A stretch of 45,624 bases of DNA from a phage: assembly GCA_033193195.1 (NCBI GenBank), contig GCA_033193195.1_4326.1; one strand, given 5' to 3'. Shown one piece after another: positions 7,932 to 37,629 of this stretch (its first letter is position 1; each line of letters begins with the position of its first letter). The notes under the pieces are model-generated. The model saw only the letters and a list, made by a program, of their open reading frames with translations, was not told where the DNA came from and did not search any database. A program made the translations under genes and the position numbers.

Positions 7932-10913
7932 TTAGTTGTAACCCCTCAGATAAGCAAAGGCTCTTCCGCCCTGCTGGAATGACTTGCTGATTTCCTCAGC
8001 AACGATAACCTTAACTCCAGATTCTATCGCCTTAGCATCATTTCCGCCACCAATTCCAGAGTTTACGTTAACCGTCACGCCGCCAACACTGACATTCGTG
8101 CCACCAACAACTCCACCATTAGCATAGCCAGAGGGCCCACCAACAGCGCCGCCATTTGCATAACCTCGCATTAGCTTGTACAGGTTCTTAACGCCAATCC
8201 TGCTTGTAGCTTCTTTTGTGAATACAAACTCACCGCGGTGCACAGTTCCAGCAGGTTGATACTTCCCGCCGTCTCCAGTGTAGCCGCCGCCAGCAAAGCC
8301 AATTGCTGACTTTATTGACTCAAAGGCACTACCTGCTCCAGTGTCACCACCAAAGCTCTTAATTGTAGATTCAATAGCCTTTACCAAAAGTAGCTGAGTT
8401 GCAATTTTCGCAATCATTTTCAGTATGTTTGCCGTGAACTCCCTGAAATTAGTCTCTCCAGTGGTTACAAGGTTTGTAATCTGGTCGGTAATTCCATCAA
8501 AAGCTGCGACAGTCAAATCCTTAGCAATTTGGTTGAAGTCAGTGTACTTCTCAGTTAAGTCAGCAAGCGTTGAAGTTACACCAGCTTGCCAGTCTGACCT
8601 TAGGTTATCTTCCTGCCTGTAGTATTCTTTTCTTGCTTCCAGCAGATTCTGGAAATCAACATCATCTACAGAGCCACCCTTGTTTACCTGATTGGACTCT
8701 AGCGCCTTAAGTTCTCCTGCCCTTTGCCGCTCCCTTTCGGATAGACCCGCAGCAAGTGAAACATTCTTCGCCTCATTGGTAATCTGTATTGTCTTCTTAA
8801 GGTTGTCATCAAGTAACTTGTTTGACCTCTCCTGAAGCACAATCTGGTCACCAAGTTCAGCCTTCTGTTTAGCCTGTTCAAGAATGATATTCTTCTGCGC
8901 AAGTAGCTTAGCCTGTAATTTTGTAAGCGTACCATCCGCTTTCCTTTGCTCAAGTATTGCAAACTTAGCTTCCTCCTGGAATAGCTGCTTGCGTTCGTTA
9001 CTTATTACATCGTTTATCGTCCTGTGCTCTTGTAAAACCTTTAGCTGAGCCTGAAGTGCAAGAACGCCAGATTCATAAGATAAGGTTAAATCCCTTTCTT
9101 CTTTTACTGCCTTGTTCCTCTCACTCCTCGCTTTCTTTATCCCATCAAGCTCATCAGCTAGCGCCTTCCTTCTTGCTGCAAATTCCTTATCTGTTGATGG
9201 TTTGTTGCCAGTTAGGTTGATATCGCTGTTTTCCTTAACATATCCCATCTCTCCCTTTCTGATCCTAGCATCTCGCTCAGCGATGCTTCTTGCTAACTCC
9301 TCGTTTTGCTTCTTGGCTGCATCGACAACCTTTTGCTGCTCAGCAATTATGCCGTTACCTACATCACCAAGCCCCGGTATTGACTGAAGCGTCTTGGTTG
9401 CAGCGATAGCAAATTCACCAAGAAGAATGTCGCCTGAGTTTATAAACGACCTTATCTGCTCAATCGTACCAGCAACAACGTCAGTTATTAAGTTAAGAGC
9501 ACCAAGTGTGCGCTTGCCGATTCTATCCCAAATGTCGCTTACAAACTTTCTGAAGCTATTCCATGCACTTTCAAGGGGGTTAAGGCTTAGCGCAACATCT
9601 TCCAGCCTATTCTCCATAACGTTAGCGAATAGCTCAGTAGCTGCCGTTACAGCTTCTGTCTCTCCTGCTGTCTTCCTCAAGTTCTCTATGTGTTTTAACT
9701 GTCCGGACTGAAGGAAGTTAAATTGCTTATCAAGCTCAGCAAGGCCTTTAACCGGGTCTTTTGTGATCTTGTCAAAGTACCCAAGTATAGTTTTTGAATC
9801 CGTTGATGTAACAGTTGCCCACTGAGCAGTTGCTTTGGTTATCTTATCTATCTGCGTAAGCGTTAGATTACCGTTTGCTACAAGACTATTCGCTATCTCT
9901 TGGATGAGTCCGCGCGTGGCTAGCGTGGAACTCTCAATGCTATCAACAACCTGGTTTATTTGCCCTGTTGATGTGATTGTTGAGTTTCCAACCAGCGTTA
10001 TTGTTGCTGCTAGCTCTCGTGCGTTCCTATCAGCCTGATAAGCAGCAATACCCAAGGCCCCAAGAGCCAGACCCAGAGTCCCAACAACCGCCGTTAATGG
10101 GTTAATGGCTGCCAGTGCAAACCTTGCTGTATTGCCGATACCACCAAAACTATCCTTAATCTGACCGCCCTGCTGGACTGCTACAAGCCAGATTGGCATG
10201 CCGCTAGCAAGAGATGTAACGATATCTGTAATCTGCGCTGGAAGCTGTCGAATTGCTTGCTTGTATTGACCGGCACTAAGCCCAGACTTAACAAAAGCGG
10301 AGCTTTGCTTCTGCAATTGTACCGCAGATGCCTCGGCAGCCTTTCCAATCCTGTCGATAATCGGTGCAGCCTGGTCACTAACTCCTAGCTGAGCAGCCTT
10401 AAGCTGAAGAAGTTCAGTCCTTGTCAGGCTTGCTGCATTCGCCTCGTTCTCAAGAGATTGAATGAACTTTTGCGCTGCTGTTGTTGCTTTCTCTTTATCT
10501 ATTGATGCCTGTAGTGCAGCCCTGCCTTCTTCGCTAAGAGCGGCTTTAGACCTGTTTAGCTTATTGATTTGAGTTTCAATAACAGAGCCAAGCCTGAAGA
10601 ATTCATCATCAGGAACTATCCCGGATTCAAATGCTTTGTCCAAATCTGTTGCTGCTTTCTGCAACTTCAGGAATTTAGCAGCGGTTGGGTCTATGGCTTG
10701 CTGAAGTGATGCGAAAGATTTGCGCTGCTCCTCAAGCTGCCTTGCAGTGTCCCTTGCTTGAGTCTTGGCTACAAGTTCGGCGTTGACGAAGCTATTAATG
10801 CCTGTTGCAGCTTGCTCGTTTGCTTGCCTGAATTTCTGTAAGGATTGCGTACCCTTATCGACCTGAGCTACGTCGACGGCTAGCGTGATACCAGCAATTT
10901 CGTTAGTTGCCAT
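7932..10913 (-). CDS. tail tape measure protein
   Basis: 993 aa, long coiled-coil-type Ala/Gln/Lys-rich regions, Gly-rich C-terminus, follows G/G-T chaperone pair. Confidence 0.85.
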   Translation of the reverse strand: MATNEIAGITLAVDVAQVDKGTQSLQKFRQANEQAATGINSFVNAELVAKTQARDTARQLEEQRKSFASLQQAIDPTAAKFLKLQKAATDLDKAFESGIVPDDEFFRLGSVIETQINKLNRSKAALSEEGRAALQASIDKEKATTAAQKFIQSLENEANAASLTRTELLQLKAAQLGVSDQAAPIIDRIGKAAEASAVQLQKQSSAFVKSGLSAGQYKQAIRQLPAQITDIVTSLASGMPIWLVAVQQGGQIKDSFGGIGNTARFALAAINPLTAVVGTLGLALGALGIAAYQADRNARELAATITLVGNSTITSTGQINQVVDSIESSTLATRGLIQEIANSLVANGNLTLTQIDKITKATAQWATVTSTDSKTILGYFDKITKDPVKGLAELDKQFNFLQSGQLKHIENLRKTAGETEAVTAATELFANVMENRLEDVALSLNPLESAWNSFRKFVSDIWDRIGKRTLGALNLITDVVAGTIEQIRSFINSGDILLGEFAIAATKTLQSIPGLGDVGNGIIAEQQKVVDAAKKQNEELARSIAERDARIRKGEMGYVKENSDINLTGNKPSTDKEFAARRKALADELDGIKKARSERNKAVKEERDLTLSYESGVLALQAQLKVLQEHRTINDVISNERKQLFQEEAKFAILEQRKADGTLTKLQAKLLAQKNIILEQAKQKAELGDQIVLQERSNKLLDDNLKKTIQITNEAKNVSLAAGLSERERQRAGELKALESNQVNKGGSVDDVDFQNLLEARKEYYRQEDNLRSDWQAGVTSTLADLTEKYTDFNQIAKDLTVAAFDGITDQITNLVTTGETNFREFTANILKMIAKIATQLLLVKAIESTIKSFGGDTGAGSAFESIKSAIGFAGGGYTGDGGKYQPAGTVHRGEFVFTKEATSRIGVKNLYKLMRGYANGGAVGGPSGYANGGVVGGTNVSVGGVTVNVNSGIGGGNDAKAIESGVKVIVAEEISKSFQQGGRAFAYLRGYN

Positions 10914-10926
10914 GTTGTCTCCATAA

Positions 10927-10952
10927 TAAAAAAGCCACCCCGAAGGATGGCT
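10927..10952 (-). terminator. imperfect hairpin plus T-run upstream of tape measure gene
   Basis: AGCCACC-CCGAA-GGATGGCT then T6 on minus strand; overlaps stop of 10951..11202. Confidence 0.4.
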
Positions 10953-11202
10953 ATTTCTTGGCGTTCATCATATCTAAGGCTTTAGCCTCAAGTATTCTGA
11001 TGTCGTTAAGTACCATTTCGTCATCATCTATTTTATAGACTTTGAATAAGAATGGAAGGCAATTATAATCAAGGCCTGTGGCACCGCAAGCCCCTACTCG
11101 CCATTGAGTTGACATGGCACAGTACACATCCCAGCTTTGCATCATTGTTTCATCGAAGTATAACTCTTCAGGCTCCTCACCTTCATAATCGGAACGTTTC
11201 AT
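10951..11202 (-). CDS. tail assembly chaperone T-like segment (expressed as G-T fusion by -1 frameshift)
   Basis: ORF in -1 frame relative to 11265..11579; that frame is open from slippery site to this ORF. Confidence 0.6.
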   Translation of the reverse strand: MKRSDYEGEEPEELYFDETMMQSWDVYCAMSTQWRVGACGATGLDYNCLPFLFKVYKIDDDEMVLNDIRILEAKALDMMNAKK

Positions 11203-11264
11203 TCCGATAGCTTCGAGTTCAGCATCCGTTGGCGGTGACTGGTATTGTAAGTATACTGCGCGTT

Positions 11265-11579
11265 TTAGTTTTTTACTCGCTGACCTGCTAGCGCTTTCAT
11301 GTAGCTATCCATCAGTGATGGAACGGCACCAGGGAAAAGGTTGGCAAACTCATCTACGTTCTCATCGGTAAATGGTTCTTCTAAATCCCAGTCAGAGCAG
11401 ATTTCGTTAATCAATTCTTTAGTGCTGAAGTTTTCACGATTAAGAATCTCCTGAAGTTCAGATGATTTCTTGTGCTTAACTGTTAGTACCACCTCTGCAT
11501 CTTCACCATTCGCTAACTGAAACTTAACCGGAAGTTTAAAGTCAGGCAGCGCCTTAAGTGAAAGTTTAAATTTTGCCAT
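11265..11579 (-). CDS. tail assembly chaperone G-like
   Basis: 104 aa acidic protein between major tail and tape measure; ends at slippery site. Confidence 0.65.
   Translation of the reverse strand: MAKFKLSLKALPDFKLPVKFQLANGEDAEVVLTVKHKKSSELQEILNRENFSTKELINEICSDWDLEEPFTDENVDEFANLFPGAVPSLMDSYMKALAGQRVKN
11268..11274 (-). other. -1 programmed frameshift slippery heptamer A_AAA_AAC
   Basis: minus-strand GTA AAA AAC TAA; -1 frame reads KKLKRAVYLQYQSPPTDAELEAIG then MKRSDYEGEE.. Confidence 0.6.
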
Positions 11580-11614
11580 CTCGTTATCTCCTTTGTTTGT
11601 GTTGAATGATTATA

Positions 11615-11863
11615 TTACTTTGATTCGTTTTTTACAATGTTGTGAGCAACTTCGGTGCACACCTCGCGACCATAATGCAGAATCTGATTTGTCTTATCGC
11701 CAGCTACTTTTTCACAATGAGAATATGCACTATTAAATTCATGTTCATACTTTATTGCATCAGAGTTTGCGGTTTCGCCACCAGTTGGGTTAACAATCTG
11801 AATTGCCAGGTAGAAAGCACCAAGAGCAGCAGCAAGTTTGATGATGTTTTTAACGTTGTTCAT
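11615..11863 (-). CDS. small secreted or membrane protein (moron-like insert)
   Basis: N-terminal hydrophobic signal-like segment; own family promoter upstream. Confidence 0.5.
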   Translation of the reverse strand: MNNVKNIIKLAAALGAFYLAIQIVNPTGGETANSDAIKYEHEFNSAYSHCEKVAGDKTNQILHYGREVCTEVAHNIVKNESK

Positions 11864-11896
11864 TTCACTAATATCTCATTTCGTTTCGATGAATGA

Positions 11897-11941
11897 ACTA
11901 TACAGCAATCCGCGATTTGGTCTTTAACAAAAAGTGCTATC
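11897..11941 (-). promoter_or_regulatory. family promoter for 11615..11863
   Basis: minus-strand GATAGCACTTTTTGTTAAAGAC, TATAGT -10, CATCGAAACGAAA leader. Confidence 0.55.
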
Positions 11942-11943
11942 AA

Positions 11944-11967
11944 TAAAAAACCCTCCGAAGAGGGTTT
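11944..11967 (-). terminator. rho-independent terminator after major tail gene
   Basis: AACCCTC-TTCGG-AGGGTT then T6 on minus strand. Confidence 0.7.
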
Positions 11968-11971
11968 ATAT

Positions 11972-12631
11972 TTATGCCAGTTCAGAAGCTACAGAACTCA
12001 ACCTACCACGGATAGATACCGCGATGGATACCGTTTCGATTTCGTTAACACCAATGCTTGGGGTGTCGTTGAAAGCGATAGTGCCAGACTGGAGACGCAT
12101 CTCTCTAGCTCGAGGTACGAACAGACGAATAGCAACAGTAGTACCAGTTTCGTCATAGTTACGCAGAATCGGATATATCGGGTTGGTGTATTCGTGCGCA
12201 AACGTGTAGGTGTTGGTTACCGCAGACTTATAAGTTGGAATCTGCTGCTCACGTTCATCAGATAAACACTGGAAGTTAACGAACTGCTGTTCGCCGCCAT
12301 CAGTGGATACGTCCTGAACACAAGGAACTTCAAACCAAGTAAGAATCTTAACAACTTCACCAGTTAAGCCAGCTGGGAACTTAGTGGTGTTGGAGGTATC
12401 AATACCTTCAACAGTTACGGTTGAACCAGATACCTCGGTAACGCGAACTTGCTTATCAGCCAGCAGGGTCGAAGCTGAGCTGGTAAATAGCAGGTAATCA
12501 CCGCGTGCAATATCAGCAACGCTGGACAAAGTTAAAACAGGAGTAACAGCATTGGAAATTGCAGTTACGTCAATAGTAGCTCCCCTGGAGCCTTCTACGA
12601 AGACCTGAGTGCCATTACTAAGATGGGCCAT
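11972..12631 (-). CDS. major tail protein
   Basis: 219 aa immediately upstream of G/G-T chaperones, followed by strong terminator. Confidence 0.65.
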   Translation of the reverse strand: MAHLSNGTQVFVEGSRGATIDVTAISNAVTPVLTLSSVADIARGDYLLFTSSASTLLADKQVRVTEVSGSTVTVEGIDTSNTTKFPAGLTGEVVKILTWFEVPCVQDVSTDGGEQQFVNFQCLSDEREQQIPTYKSAVTNTYTFAHEYTNPIYPILRNYDETGTTVAIRLFVPRAREMRLQSGTIAFNDTPSIGVNEIETVSIAVSIRGRLSSVASELA

Positions 12632-19396: not shown

Positions 19397-19750
19397 TTAC
19401 TCGAATTTTACTTCGAAATTGATTGATGATGTTTTCACTCCATTAAGTGTTAACTGGCGAACCTCCCTTCTGACTTCATAAAATGCCTCTTTAGTTACTA
19501 TGTTTTTGTTGATGAAGTATTTAATCCCAGCCTTTTCAACTTTAAAATTATCACCTTTAACGACAAAATCGGTAGGCTCTATAACTTCGAAATCATAAAC
19601 ACTAAGATTAATTACGCCAAAATAGCCTTTATCATCCTTAACTTTGACGTATTCATTATTACTTCCAGACGTTCTTGATAAGTCATAAATCTTACCAACG
19701 GTAAACTCAAAATAACCATCTTTTTTATACCCTTTAAATACTGCTTTCAT
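19397..19750 (-). CDS. hypothetical protein
   Basis: 117 aa with own family promoter upstream. Confidence 0.5.
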   Translation of the reverse strand: MKAVFKGYKKDGYFEFTVGKIYDLSRTSGSNNEYVKVKDDKGYFGVINLSVYDFEVIEPTDFVVKGDNFKVEKAGIKYFINKNIVTKEAFYEVRREVRQLTLNGVKTSSINFEVKFE

Positions 19751-36649: not shown

Positions 36650-37629
36650 CTTGTGCCGACCTCGTTGTTATTGATACTGAGTAAAGCTCTCTCTTTTTCT
36701 TGCCGCAAATATAGCTTATAACCTTAACTCCGTCATTAGCAATAAATGCTATTAGCGCATCAACTACTGATTGAACTTCACGCCTGCTAAATGATTCGGT
36801 GTGGATTTCTACAACCCTCCCCCCTGAGCTTACAGTGCAATGACCATCATCACCAAAGTAAGCAGCCCAACCAACTGGATCAAGCTCTCTGCATATCTTT
36901 CCAATATCGTAACCATCCTTAGAATTTCCGTACTTATCAGCATATGAATCCAGAACTTTCGTACATGATGTTGATACGCAAAACCAGTTGTCGCCAAATC
37001 CAGGGTTTTTCTTCTCCCTGTATCTAGGGTTTAGTTTTGCAAACCTTTCAACCTTGCTTAGTGCGTGCTCCTTATTTCCATATTCCAAGATAGCCTATGC
37101 GTTCCTTTTTCTGTATTTTTAATCAAGCAACCATCACCAGCCATTGCCGCAAGAATGTTTTGATGTAAAAAGTCATCAACCTCCATTTATGGGTTGACGG
37201 TTGAATTATGATGCCCCGTTCTGTAATCCAAATAGAAATCGAAAGGGTTCTTAAGAAGTACGCCTAACCCCTTGCTTGAATGCGGCATAACTTTTTCACC
37301 ACAGCCACACTTGCACGCAGAAGCTTTTTCGTAAATTTGTCCTGCGAGCCGTCTAGCGACAGATTCATCCCAATACGAAGTTTTCCCGCTTCTACCCAGC
37401 AGCCGTTCGAATAAAGTTTGTGTGTACTCGTGCATTTTATTTCCTCTCCGCTTTCTAATTTAATTGATAATACATGTCTTACACCATTAGTAAAAACTCT
37501 TTTTGGCTTATGATAGAAGTAATCACCAGTGCTTTCGTTTATGCATTTTATTTTATGATTGATAAGGTCTTCGCTATCAATCCTCATCATCCCTGAATCG
37601 GTGGTTATCATCGTGTCTCCAGTTAAGCA
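36491..37629 (-). other. intein inserted in helicase DECH motif; LAGLIDADG endonuclease core disrupted
   Basis: blocks CLTGDTMITT and CTSTHKL..W in N-extein frame; ILAAMAGDGC and WAAYFGDDGHC in two other frames; in-frame TAA 37187..37189; length 1139 bp is not a multiple of 3. Confidence 0.7.

Follow-up and report, generated by a model that had tools for sequence, protein, structure and literature searches.

Between its tail tube and tape measure genes this phage has two overlapping reading frames: are they expressed as separate proteins, or are they joined by a programmed -1 frameshift into a fusion of the lambda G-T kind? The question was addressed in the whole stretch of DNA that was analysed (45,624 nt, contig GCA_033193195.1_4326.1), here called the window, in which all features described below are read on the minus strand. 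The phage DNA is approximately 93% identical to that of the Drexlerviridae phages ES, CY1 and TR2, and on this sequence relationship the window is assigned to a T1-like siphophage (Drexlerviridae, Braunvirinae-like).

The upstream synteny anchor was the major tail (tube) protein gene (12631..11972, 219 aa; phrog_584; PF08813 Phage_tail_3, E 4.3e-66), followed by an extra 82-aa ORF, the G-like tail assembly chaperone ORF (11579..11265, 104 aa and stop), the T-like segment in the -1 frame (11268..10951, 105 codons and TAG), and the downstream anchor, the tape measure protein gene (10913..7932, 993 aa; phrog_24, E 6.9e-246). G starts at the ATG at 11579, which is preceded by AAGGAG. The 37 nt that separate the stop of T from the start of the tape measure gene hold a hairpin resembling a terminator (10933..10952; 8-bp stem, UUCG loop, T run), found by a consensus scan and of putative function; T1 (19508..19527) and Stevie (10774..10792) each have an annotated terminator at the corresponding place.

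Slip site and protein families

An earlier note had reported that the G-like ORF ends GTA AAA AAC TAA, and this was confirmed (3' end ...CAG CGA GTA AAA AAC TAA). The slippery heptamer A_AAA_AAC lies at 11268..11274 (the A of GTA, then AAA and AAC), in the X_XXY_YYZ register of the G frame, and the stop codon TAA (11267..11265) adjoins it directly on the 3' side and shares bases with CTA (Leu), the codon with which reading in the -1 frame begins. From there the -1 frame (CTA AAA CGC GCA GTA TAC TTA CAA...) is open for 105 sense codons until TAG at 10953..10951 and, as the note had also stated, runs into an 83-aa ATG ORF (11202..10951) contained within it. G and T overlap by 40 nt, and A_AAA_AAC is the sole in-frame heptamer in the overlap. 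The predicted fusion (10951..11579) would have 209 aa, 104 from G and 105 from the -1 frame.

Thirteen copies of the string AAAAAAC are present in the 45.6-kb window, whose G+C content is 43.7%. Among 66 putative genes chosen greedily (13,602 codons), 37 in-frame X_XXY_YYZ heptamers were counted, and only the one at the G end precedes a long -1 ORF: 105 codons there, then 64 and 44, with most of the rest shorter than 10. Since the 105-codon ORF is unique among the 37, the arrangement is more than chance. The second in-frame A_AAA_AAC (11633..11627), in the neighbouring 82-aa ORF, served as an internal control. It was rejected as a second recoding site because its -1 frame stays open for only 7 codons and the motif lacks conservation, being already gone in a relative with an 84% identical copy of the 82-aa ORF.

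G matched PF08748 (Phage_TAC_4) over its full length (E 1.2e-32, 113.2 bits, Pfam gathering threshold 21.1) and also phrog_569, and the product of the -1 frame matched PF08809/DUF1799 (E 2.3e-14, 53.8 bits, gathering threshold 26). The -1 ORF is conserved in >1,100 phage records. Both halves aligned to phrog_17368 (213 positions), G covering positions 1-107 and the product of the -1 frame positions 109-211 (E 8e-50); as a single PHROG spans both halves, fused proteins are already present in phage databases.

When the fused 209-aa sequence was used as the query, the whole-database protein search yielded two partial DUF1799 proteins (123 and 136 aa) as its only matches, with no named fusion among them, and the PDB sequence search returned nothing at E up to 1. 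No NCBIfam family for the pair was found. Rfam, searched over 10800..12100 at E up to 1, gave no match at the slip site and only a sub-threshold rsmX near the tube-gene terminator. The AlphaFold2 model of G, built from the single sequence, had a beta-hairpin and four helices at a mean pLDDT of 60.4, gave no Foldseek match in the PDB at E < 0.6, and was set aside for its low confidence.

Conservation and RNA signals at the G end

The 104 loci collected from relatives were reduced to 92 distinct regions, 89 of which had the same -1 layout. All 89 keep the order of the ORFs and the -1 relation, and each has a slippery motif at the same codon. The motif X_XXA_AAC followed by a stop was present in 67, as A_AAA_AAC (65) or as G_GGA_AAC TGA (2; Ralstonia phage Dina and a Stenotrophomonas phage, G identity 26-36%); 17 relatives had A_AAA_GTY TAA and five A_AAG_GTC TAA. 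The motif at the G end persisted down to 26% protein identity to the G of the window.

It was kept at the nucleotide level, with the encoded residue varying. In all 89, codon -3 has as its wobble base the nucleotide with which the slip codon begins (A before AAA or AAG, G before GGA), although the residue that codon -3 encodes changes (V, A, T, R, E), whereas neighbouring four-fold codons use all four bases. Without exception, the G stop (TAA 85, TGA 4) comes directly after the sense codon that follows the slip codon, and the -1 codon overlapping it is Leu in every case (CTA 70, TTA 15, CTG 4).

RNA structure 3' of the heptamer is confined to some lineages. In Stevie and in most of the Tempevirinae and Tunavirinae, a hairpin of 12 pairs starts 6-7 nt past the heptamer, with deltaG of about -15 to -19 kcal/mol and z-scores between -2.7 and -5, and at least 10 of its 12 pairs are formed in 40 of the 89 relatives. 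The T1/Stevie hairpin sequence is GGGCGGUUUAUCUG...CAGAAACCGCCC. In the window, six of the 12 pairs are possible, and the 60 nt that follow the heptamer have a folding energy of -7.9 kcal/mol (z -0.03), no better than shuffles. On the 5' side, a weak AGGU, a candidate Shine-Dalgarno-like stimulator, lies 9 nt upstream of the heptamer; it comes from the Ala-Gly codons GCA GGT, the wobbles of which vary freely in relatives. The heptamer and the adjacent stop are the only recognisable signals in the window's clade.

Proposed mechanism and alternatives

A slip of the ribosome on A_AAA_AAC very probably gives a minority 209-aa G-T fusion with DUF1799 as its C-terminal half, as judged from the frames, families and conservation described above. 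Most ribosomes translating G would terminate at TAA and release the 104-aa protein, and a small fraction would slip one base back on the heptamer (11274..11268) and read the -1 frame to 10951. We infer that it is the ribosome that slips. If the analogy with lambda gpG/gpGT holds (PMC5009743), the tape measure protein would be covered by many copies of G and a few of G-T, with the T domain bringing in the tail tube protein, and both G and G-T would be absent from the virion; the two domains would thus divide the labour as in lambda. The efficiency of the slip is probably low, no more than a few percent, because A_AAA_AAC counts as one of the weaker heptamers in E. coli and no 3' hairpin is present in the window, and with so weak a heptamer the fusion yield may be very low. 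The adjacent stop would contribute by slowing the ribosome.

Canonical tandem slippage decodes AAC as Asn before the slip, and the predicted junction is ..RVKN-LKRAV.. (..VKN-LKRAVYLQ..). The trans-frame peptide proposed earlier, ..VKKLKRAVYLQ.., is a plain conceptual -1 translation and did not hold up as the product of such a slip: the ..RVKK-LKRAV.. junction would form only if tRNA-Lys slipped in the P site before the arrival of Asn-tRNA, or on an mRNA with an extra A. The predicted junction peptide after a tandem -1 slip (Glu-C or Asp-N) is SYMKALAGQRVKNLKRAVYLQYQSPPTD.

Frameshifting may be coupled to termination (a 'shifty stop'), with the G to G-T ratio set by release-factor kinetics at UAA-A and not by RNA structure. 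This coupling may apply given the invariant slippery codon one codon before the G stop and the 3' hairpin lost in the window's clade, and it is put forward tentatively, as doubtful.

A further alternative, which we hold to be unlikely yet worth weighing, is a ribosomal slip of a single tRNA: P-site tRNA-Lys would re-pair on A_AAA, not in tandem, while the A site is empty or, after translocation, holds the stop, and the junction would then be ..VKK-L.. or depend on termination kinetics. The slippery tetramer at codon -2 (A_AAA, A_AAG or G_GGA) is the one feature common to all 89 relatives, the second slippery codon being absent in 22 and the stop position invariant, and IS elements are known to use the tetramers A_AAG and A_AAA (PMC4066793). 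Set against this, tetramers are generally less efficient than heptamers (PMC4066793), and the 67 relatives with the full heptamer have AAC, never AAT or another codon, from which it can be argued that the A-site codon also matters.

If T were instead an 83-aa protein translated by itself from the ATG at 11202, the heptamer would be irrelevant. Such a start exists in the window and in 18 of the 92 distinct relatives, so some independent synthesis of T is possible in this clade, and close relatives (ES, CY1, IMM-001 and others) are annotated in GenBank with two separate CDSs, 'tail assembly chaperone' and 'TfmS' or 'minor tail protein'. As the main route to T this is nevertheless improbable. At the position of the 11202 ATG, T1, Stevie, Henu7 and vojen have Leu codons; the first T-frame ATG falls at +65, +122, +149, +221 or +272 by lineage, with +122 to +272 where the 11202 equivalent is missing, and in these sequences T has no conserved independent start. 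The ATG at 11202 has no usably spaced Shine-Dalgarno sequence, only a GGA abutting it, and lies inside a predicted 9-bp hairpin.

The codons upstream of this ATG also speak against an independent start. Over the 21 codons from the slip site to the first -1-frame ATG, the window and relative L012 differ by 11 synonymous changes and one non-synonymous change in the -1 frame; scored in either other frame, the same differences are 0 synonymous and 12 non-synonymous. For relatives L010 to L004, 9-12 synonymous changes stood against 1-4 non-synonymous ones in the -1 frame, and almost all were non-synonymous in the other two. This substitution pattern indicates that strong purifying selection acts in the -1 frame right after the G stop, upstream of any start codon. 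Moreover, the peptide LKRAVYL begins exactly at the slip site in all relatives, and the curators of Stevie joined both ORFs.

Slippage of RNA polymerase on the A6 run, adding one A to some mRNAs, would place ..VKK-LKRAV.. in a single frame. The slip site is indeed a homopolymer run, AAAAAA, and one inserted A gives exactly the conceptual peptide proposed earlier. Efficient slippage by E. coli RNA polymerase, however, reportedly needs runs of about nine or more A/T (Baranov et al. 2005), a length for which A6 is too short. Homologous sites have runs of only 3-4 identical bases, at which tRNA re-pairing still fits and polymerase slippage does not, and every relative with a heptamer obeys the X_XXY_YYZ register of the G frame, to which transcription is indifferent; this explanation is thus very improbable. 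That the heptamer is a chance A-rich string before a decayed or non-coding frame, as the 13 copies of AAAAAAC and the clearly fortuitous second in-frame copy might suggest, is effectively refuted by the Pfam domain, wide conservation and codon-position substitution pattern of the -1 ORF and by its standing as the sole long one behind any of the 37 heptamers. Ribosomal slippage on the heptamer is retained as the preferred reading.

Annotation and known systems

On the sequence evidence, the programmed -1 frameshift at G/T is real, strongly conserved and already known. The main value of the result is for annotation: the correct description would be a joined CDS with ribosomal slippage at 11268, in place of the two genes of the GenBank records of close relatives, and the T region is unannotated in some Drexlerviridae records (vojen, herni). 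Nothing is added to the biology of G/G-T frameshifting as such. For recoding specialists, the family comparison is a natural data set, in which three designs of the slip site at a single codon are combined with a neighbouring stop that never moves and a 3' hairpin present or absent by lineage, and which could be used to probe how a low, fixed frameshift rate is maintained.

The cassettes of dnaX and of the IS911/IS3 type likewise use -1 slippage of tRNA-Lys on an A-rich heptamer. They have A_AAA_AAG, a Shine-Dalgarno-like element about 10 nt upstream, a 3' hairpin or pseudoknot, and efficiencies of tens of percent, whereas the window has AAC, no 3' structure and only the weak, non-conserved AGGU upstream. 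The structure by which these cassettes are recognised, a stable hairpin or pseudoknot that lies 5-9 nt from the heptamer on its 3' side, is absent from the window. The insA-insB' frameshift of IS1 is reported to take place on A_AAA_AAC (Sekine & Ohtsubo 1989) and is said to have been described also by Escoubas et al. (1991). The same heptamer is proven there in E. coli without an established RNA stimulator and with low-level fusion (PMC4066793); the protein, a transposase, is unrelated.

Among Drexlerviridae, the closest annotated case is Stevie (CPT_Stevie15/16, KM236241; Tlsvirus), in which a two-piece joined CDS, 'tape measure chaperone', has 632 nt and encodes approximately 210 aa; this length and the 213 positions of phrog_17368 agree with the predicted 209-aa fusion. 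The chaperone frameshift is mentioned in the genome paper of this Citrobacter phage, and in E. coli phage U136B the chaperone pair is annotated likewise, with the frameshift mentioned (PMC8104045). Direct evidence of the G-T fusion protein in T1-like phages was not found in the literature searched, and the case for it is a comparative one throughout. The genes of Stevie and the window are orthologous (identity 54% for G and 69% for T) and share the same GTAAAAAACTAA, with an identical ...CGN GTA AAA AAC TAA ending, the same -1 relation, the same position between tube and tape measure genes, and a terminator after T. Stevie differs in having the 3' hairpin that the window's clade lacks; the window has the extra 82-aa ORF between tube and G, and its close relatives, unlike Stevie, are annotated without the join.

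The G / G-T pair made by programmed -1 frameshift is reportedly defined by Xu, Hendrix & Duda (2004), and the lambda gpG/gpGT system itself is said to be described by Levin, Hendrix & Casjens (1993) and Xu, Hendrix & Duda (2004, 2013, 2014). The locus has the corresponding position, a -1 overlap with a slippery heptamer, conservation despite divergence, and a T without its own conserved start. The chaperone reading of the earlier note is thus supported by the protein families, the location between tube and tape measure genes, the comparative evidence and the joined CDS of Stevie. Lambda, too, has two overlapping ORFs flanked by its tube and tape measure genes, and a -1 shift on X_XXA_AAN near the end of G gives a longer product with an extra C-terminal domain. 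Lambda needs G and GT at about 30:1 (PMC5009743), so a low shift rate would be expected here as well. The slip sites differ, being G_GGA_AAG with five sense codons before the stop in lambda and A_AAA_AAC flush with the stop in the window, and so do the families: lambda G and T match only PF06894 and PF06223, and the window has PF08748 and PF08809. When a nine-sequence G-T alignment was compared with lambda GT by hhalign, the probability was 0.3%, with a match of only 13 columns; as no homology to lambda G/T is detectable, the roles of the two domains are transferred by analogy only. By that analogy, the pair in the window would work like lambda G/GT from outside the lambda sequence families.

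Slip site and reading frames of the chaperone region

All genes of the chaperone region are carried on the minus strand. The G ORF (11579..11265, 104 aa), with AAGGAG upstream of its start, ends in GCA GGT CAG CGA GTA AAA AAC TAA, where the heptamer A_AAA_AAC (11274..11268) stands in the X_XXY_YYZ register and is abutted by the stop TAA (11267..11265). From the slip site, the -1 frame reads CTA AAA CGC GCA GTA TAC TTA CAA and continues for 105 sense codons to TAG (10953..10951); the 83-aa ORF 11202..10951 is the portion of this frame after its first ATG. G and the open -1 frame overlap by 40 nt, and no second heptamer was found within this overlap. The earlier note had proposed a programmed -1 frameshift joining these G-like and T-like ORFs, and its coordinates and sequence statements were all reproduced by ORF, translation and sequence checks. 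The comparative evidence (layout, slip site and -1-frame selection) supports the G/G-T chaperone interpretation, and such a frameshift very probably joins G and T in this phage.

In Pfam, G gave a full-length match to PF08748 (E 1.2e-32; Phage_TAC_4, tail assembly chaperone) and the -1 product matched PF08809 (DUF1799; E 2.3e-14). In PHROGs, G covered positions 1-107 and the -1 product positions 109-211 of phrog_17368 (213 positions); as this family spans both halves, fused proteins of the G-T type are already present in phage databases. The tail tube gene (12631..11972, minus strand; PF08813, E 4e-66) lies upstream of G and the 993-aa tape measure gene (10913..7932, minus strand; phrog_24, E 7e-246) downstream of T, and the DNA of the region is ~93% identical to Escherichia phages ES, AN_ECEAS, Rao1, CY1 and TR2 (Drexlerviridae, Braunvirinae). 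With the fusion sequence as query, a large protein-database search gave two partial matches only and a PDB sequence search none; NCBIfam returned zero families, and Rfam nothing at the slip site. G was also modelled with single-sequence AlphaFold2 (pLDDT 60); a Foldseek search with the model gave no significant match.

A set of 66 putative genes of the window, chosen by greedy selection (13,602 codons), contained 37 in-frame X_XXY_YYZ heptamers. A long -1 ORF (105 codons) followed the heptamer at 11274 only; the next were 64 and 44 codons, and most were under 10. AAAAAAC as such is frequent and occurs 13 times in the 45.6 kb of the window. A second in-frame A_AAA_AAC (11633..11627, minus strand), with the same 9-mer GTAAAAAAC, lies close to the end of an 82-aa ORF and was rejected as a recoding site: its -1 frame runs for only 7 codons, and the motif is lost in a relative with an 84%-identical 82-aa ORF, relatives having GCA AAA GAA. 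This copy is a chance occurrence and is usable as an internal negative control. An in-frame G_GGA_AAA (37381..37387, minus strand) was located inside a 269-aa ORF, 114 nt ahead of its stop; its -1 frame is open for 64 codons, the second-longest such extension in the window, and is probably due to chance.

The 82-aa ORF (11615..11863, minus strand), situated between the tube gene and G, has a hydrophobic N-terminus (MNNVKNIIKLAAALGAFYLAIQIV...) and matched phrog_22925 (function unassigned in PHROGs) and no Pfam family. It was found in the window's clade and in the IMG/VR loci L011-L017 (50-56% identity); no ORF is annotated in the short tube-G gap of T1 and Stevie. It resembles an accessory gene that was inserted here, and its product may be a membrane or secreted protein; the label 'exonuclease' in one relative's record is probably a misannotation. 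Two minus-strand hairpins resemble terminators (8-bp stem, UUCG loop, T run): one follows the tube gene (11948..11967) and the other the T stop (10933..10952, just before the tape measure start). Terminators are annotated at both equivalent positions in T1 and Stevie. The putative terminator that separates the chaperone genes from the tape measure gene may cause partial termination or serve to stabilise RNA. About 30 nt ahead of the G start, a sigma-70-like promoter match (11609..11637, minus strand; TTGTAA, 17 nt, TATAAT; 10 of 12) runs across the 3' end of the 82-aa ORF, and L011-L017 have a comparable TTGCAA...TAGAAT at the same place.

Slip-site variation among relatives and the probable route of slippage

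The tblastn search with the conceptual fusion gave 1,133 phage records, 912 of which covered at least 80% in two pieces. The comparison set of 104 loci (annotated phage records and IMG/VR contigs) was reduced to 92 distinct regions, and the layout of G followed by T in the -1 frame was present in 89 of them. Two IMG/VR contigs (L064 and L087) read GTAAAAACTAA at the slip site, with A5 instead of A6, which breaks the normal frame relation; the cause is most likely a homopolymer miscall in sequencing or a fault of the assembly, and not biology. The third region was a partial match, and all three deviations are likely artefacts.

G ended in NNA AAA AAC followed by TAA or TGA in 65 of the 89 regions (including T1, Stevie, Henu7, vojen and Rtp) and in NNG GGA AAC TGA in two (Ralstonia phage Dina and a Stenotrophomonas phage; 26-36% G identity). 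The ending was GCA AAA GTY TAA in 17 Klebsiella Webervirus regions (from loci L005, L007-L009 and L089-L103) and GCA AAG GTC TAA in five others (L048, L060-L063; 57% G identity to the window); these two groups have no heptamer and carry the tetramer A_AAA or A_AAG alone, one codon further from the stop. The design of the slip site has turned over inside the family. The wobble base ahead of the slip codon was A before AAA or AAG and G before GGA in 89/89, unlike nearby four-fold codons, which use all four bases; the residue of that codon varied (V, A, T, R, E). The last sense codon was AAC in all 67 heptamer sites and never AAT, the G stop always stood one codon past the slip codon, and the -1 codon overlapping it was always Leu (CTA, TTA or CTG, never CTT or CTC), with CTT, CTG and CTC freely used at other Leu positions nearby. 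The fixed wobble base, the avoidance of AAT and the constancy of the stop and Leu codon speak for selection that acts on the nucleotide sequence itself.

In the proposed mechanism, the ribosome would read GTA-AAA-AAC in the G frame, tRNA-Lys and tRNA-Asn would move back by one base to pair with A-AAA-AAA, and translation would resume at CTA (Leu). The trans-frame peptide ..VKKLKR.. predicted in the earlier note holds as a bare -1 translation, but the canonical tandem slip would give the junction ..RVKN LKRAVYLQ... The peptide ..VKKLKR.. would instead be produced by a single-tRNA P-site slip, in which tRNA-Lys alone shifts before Asn-tRNA binds; the 22 tetramer-only relatives (A_AAA_G, A_AAG_G) indicate that a single Lys-tRNA slip at the slip codon can suffice, and this is perhaps the route in the window too, although rather improbably so. 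Transcriptional slippage, by which an extra A in the mRNA would give the same ..VKKLKR.. junction, is unlikely: the window's run stops at A6, and at the homologous G_GGA_AAC and tetramer sites just 3-4 identical bases stand in a row. A_AAA_AAC ranks with the weaker heptamers in E. coli, but IS1-family elements nevertheless use it, and the IS cluster with this heptamer is a proven example for which no stimulator has been established (PMC4066793). A low frameshift rate would fit the biology, because lambda requires G and GT at about 30:1 (PMC5009743).

Selection on the T frame and candidate stimulatory signals

In the window, 21 codons separate the slip site from the first -1-frame ATG. Compared with L010-L017 (relative loci with 67-71% G identity), these codons had 9-11 synonymous and 1 non-synonymous differences in the -1 frame, versus 0 synonymous and 10-12 non-synonymous in either other frame, the differences being mostly at -1-frame third positions. 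The peptide LKRAVYL(x)YQ starts exactly at the slip site family-wide. T could alternatively be translated independently from the ATG at 11202, where GenBank relatives start 'TfmS'. T1, Stevie, Henu7 and vojen have Leu codons at this position, the first T-frame ATG lies at +65, +122, +149, +221 or +272 depending on the lineage, and the T region has no annotation at all in some records. No usable Shine-Dalgarno sequence was found for this ATG in the window, where only GGA abuts it, and a predicted 9-bp hairpin (11208..11188, minus strand; AUCGGAAUG-AAA-CGUUCCGAU) contains the ATG in its 5' arm. Given the variable or lost ATG, the -1-frame selection ahead of it, the Shine-Dalgarno result and the hairpin, independent T translation is therefore not the conserved route. 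By eye, this hairpin is weaker in the relative L003 and mostly gone in L010. As a stimulator of the frameshift it was rejected, being too distant (~60 nt from the slip site).

A conserved hairpin of 12 pairs starts 6-7 nt past the heptamer in many relatives (consensus GGGCGGUUUAYCUG-N6-CAGAARCCGCCC), for example in L022 (T1), L023 (Stevie), L006 (Henu7) and L024-L059. In 40/89 relatives, including T1, Stevie and Henu7, 10 or more of the 12 pairs form; deltaG lies between -14 and -20 kcal/mol, and z ranges from about -2.6 to -5. Phage Psq-1 (L019) has a stem of other sequence, GGCGGCG/CGCCGCC, at the equivalent position. The window and its closest relatives are unable to form the 12-pair hairpin (6 of 12 pairs possible, non-contiguous), its 5' arm having been removed by synonymous changes in R-A-V (CGC GCA GTA), and the 60 nt 3' of the window heptamer fold at -7.9 kcal/mol (z -0.03). 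A possible upstream stimulator, AGGU 9 nt before the heptamer, is part of an Ala-Gly codon pair, and the wobble bases of this pair are freely variable in relatives. The heptamer and the abutting stop are thus the only clearly recognisable signals in the window. The invariance of the stop suggests that it may stimulate slippage. The invariant geometry of slip codon, one codon and stop, together with the turnover of slip-site type and 3' hairpin, could mean, as a tentative possibility, that the ratio of G to G-T in the hairpin-less clade is controlled through coupling to termination.

Comparison with known tail chaperone frameshifts

Members of this virus family were already known to have the G/G-T frameshift. 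T1 and three inspected close relatives of the window have G and T annotated as two separate genes, and in practice the finding calls for a corrected annotation of the window's phage lineage; the invariant slip codon-codon-stop geometry, with slip-site and hairpin turnover, is a mildly novel angle. Lambda is the functional paradigm of G/G-T and matches the window pair in this respect, but its G and T belong to PF06894 and PF06223, and the window pair is outside these sequence families (hhalign of the 9-sequence G-T alignment against lambda GT, probability 0.3%). For the T1-like phage Rogue1, Kropinski and colleagues hypothesised a G-T fusion and remarked only that the classical lambda site GGGAAAG was missing (PMC3496638). 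The closest known case is the orthologous one of Citrobacter phage Stevie (Drexlerviridae), which has the identical ...GTA AAA AAC TAA and whose record gives a 'tape measure chaperone' CDS joined from two pieces (10144..10775) and a short form (10144..10458); the frameshift is also noted in the paper on the Stevie genome, and phage U136B is annotated in the same way (PMC8104045).
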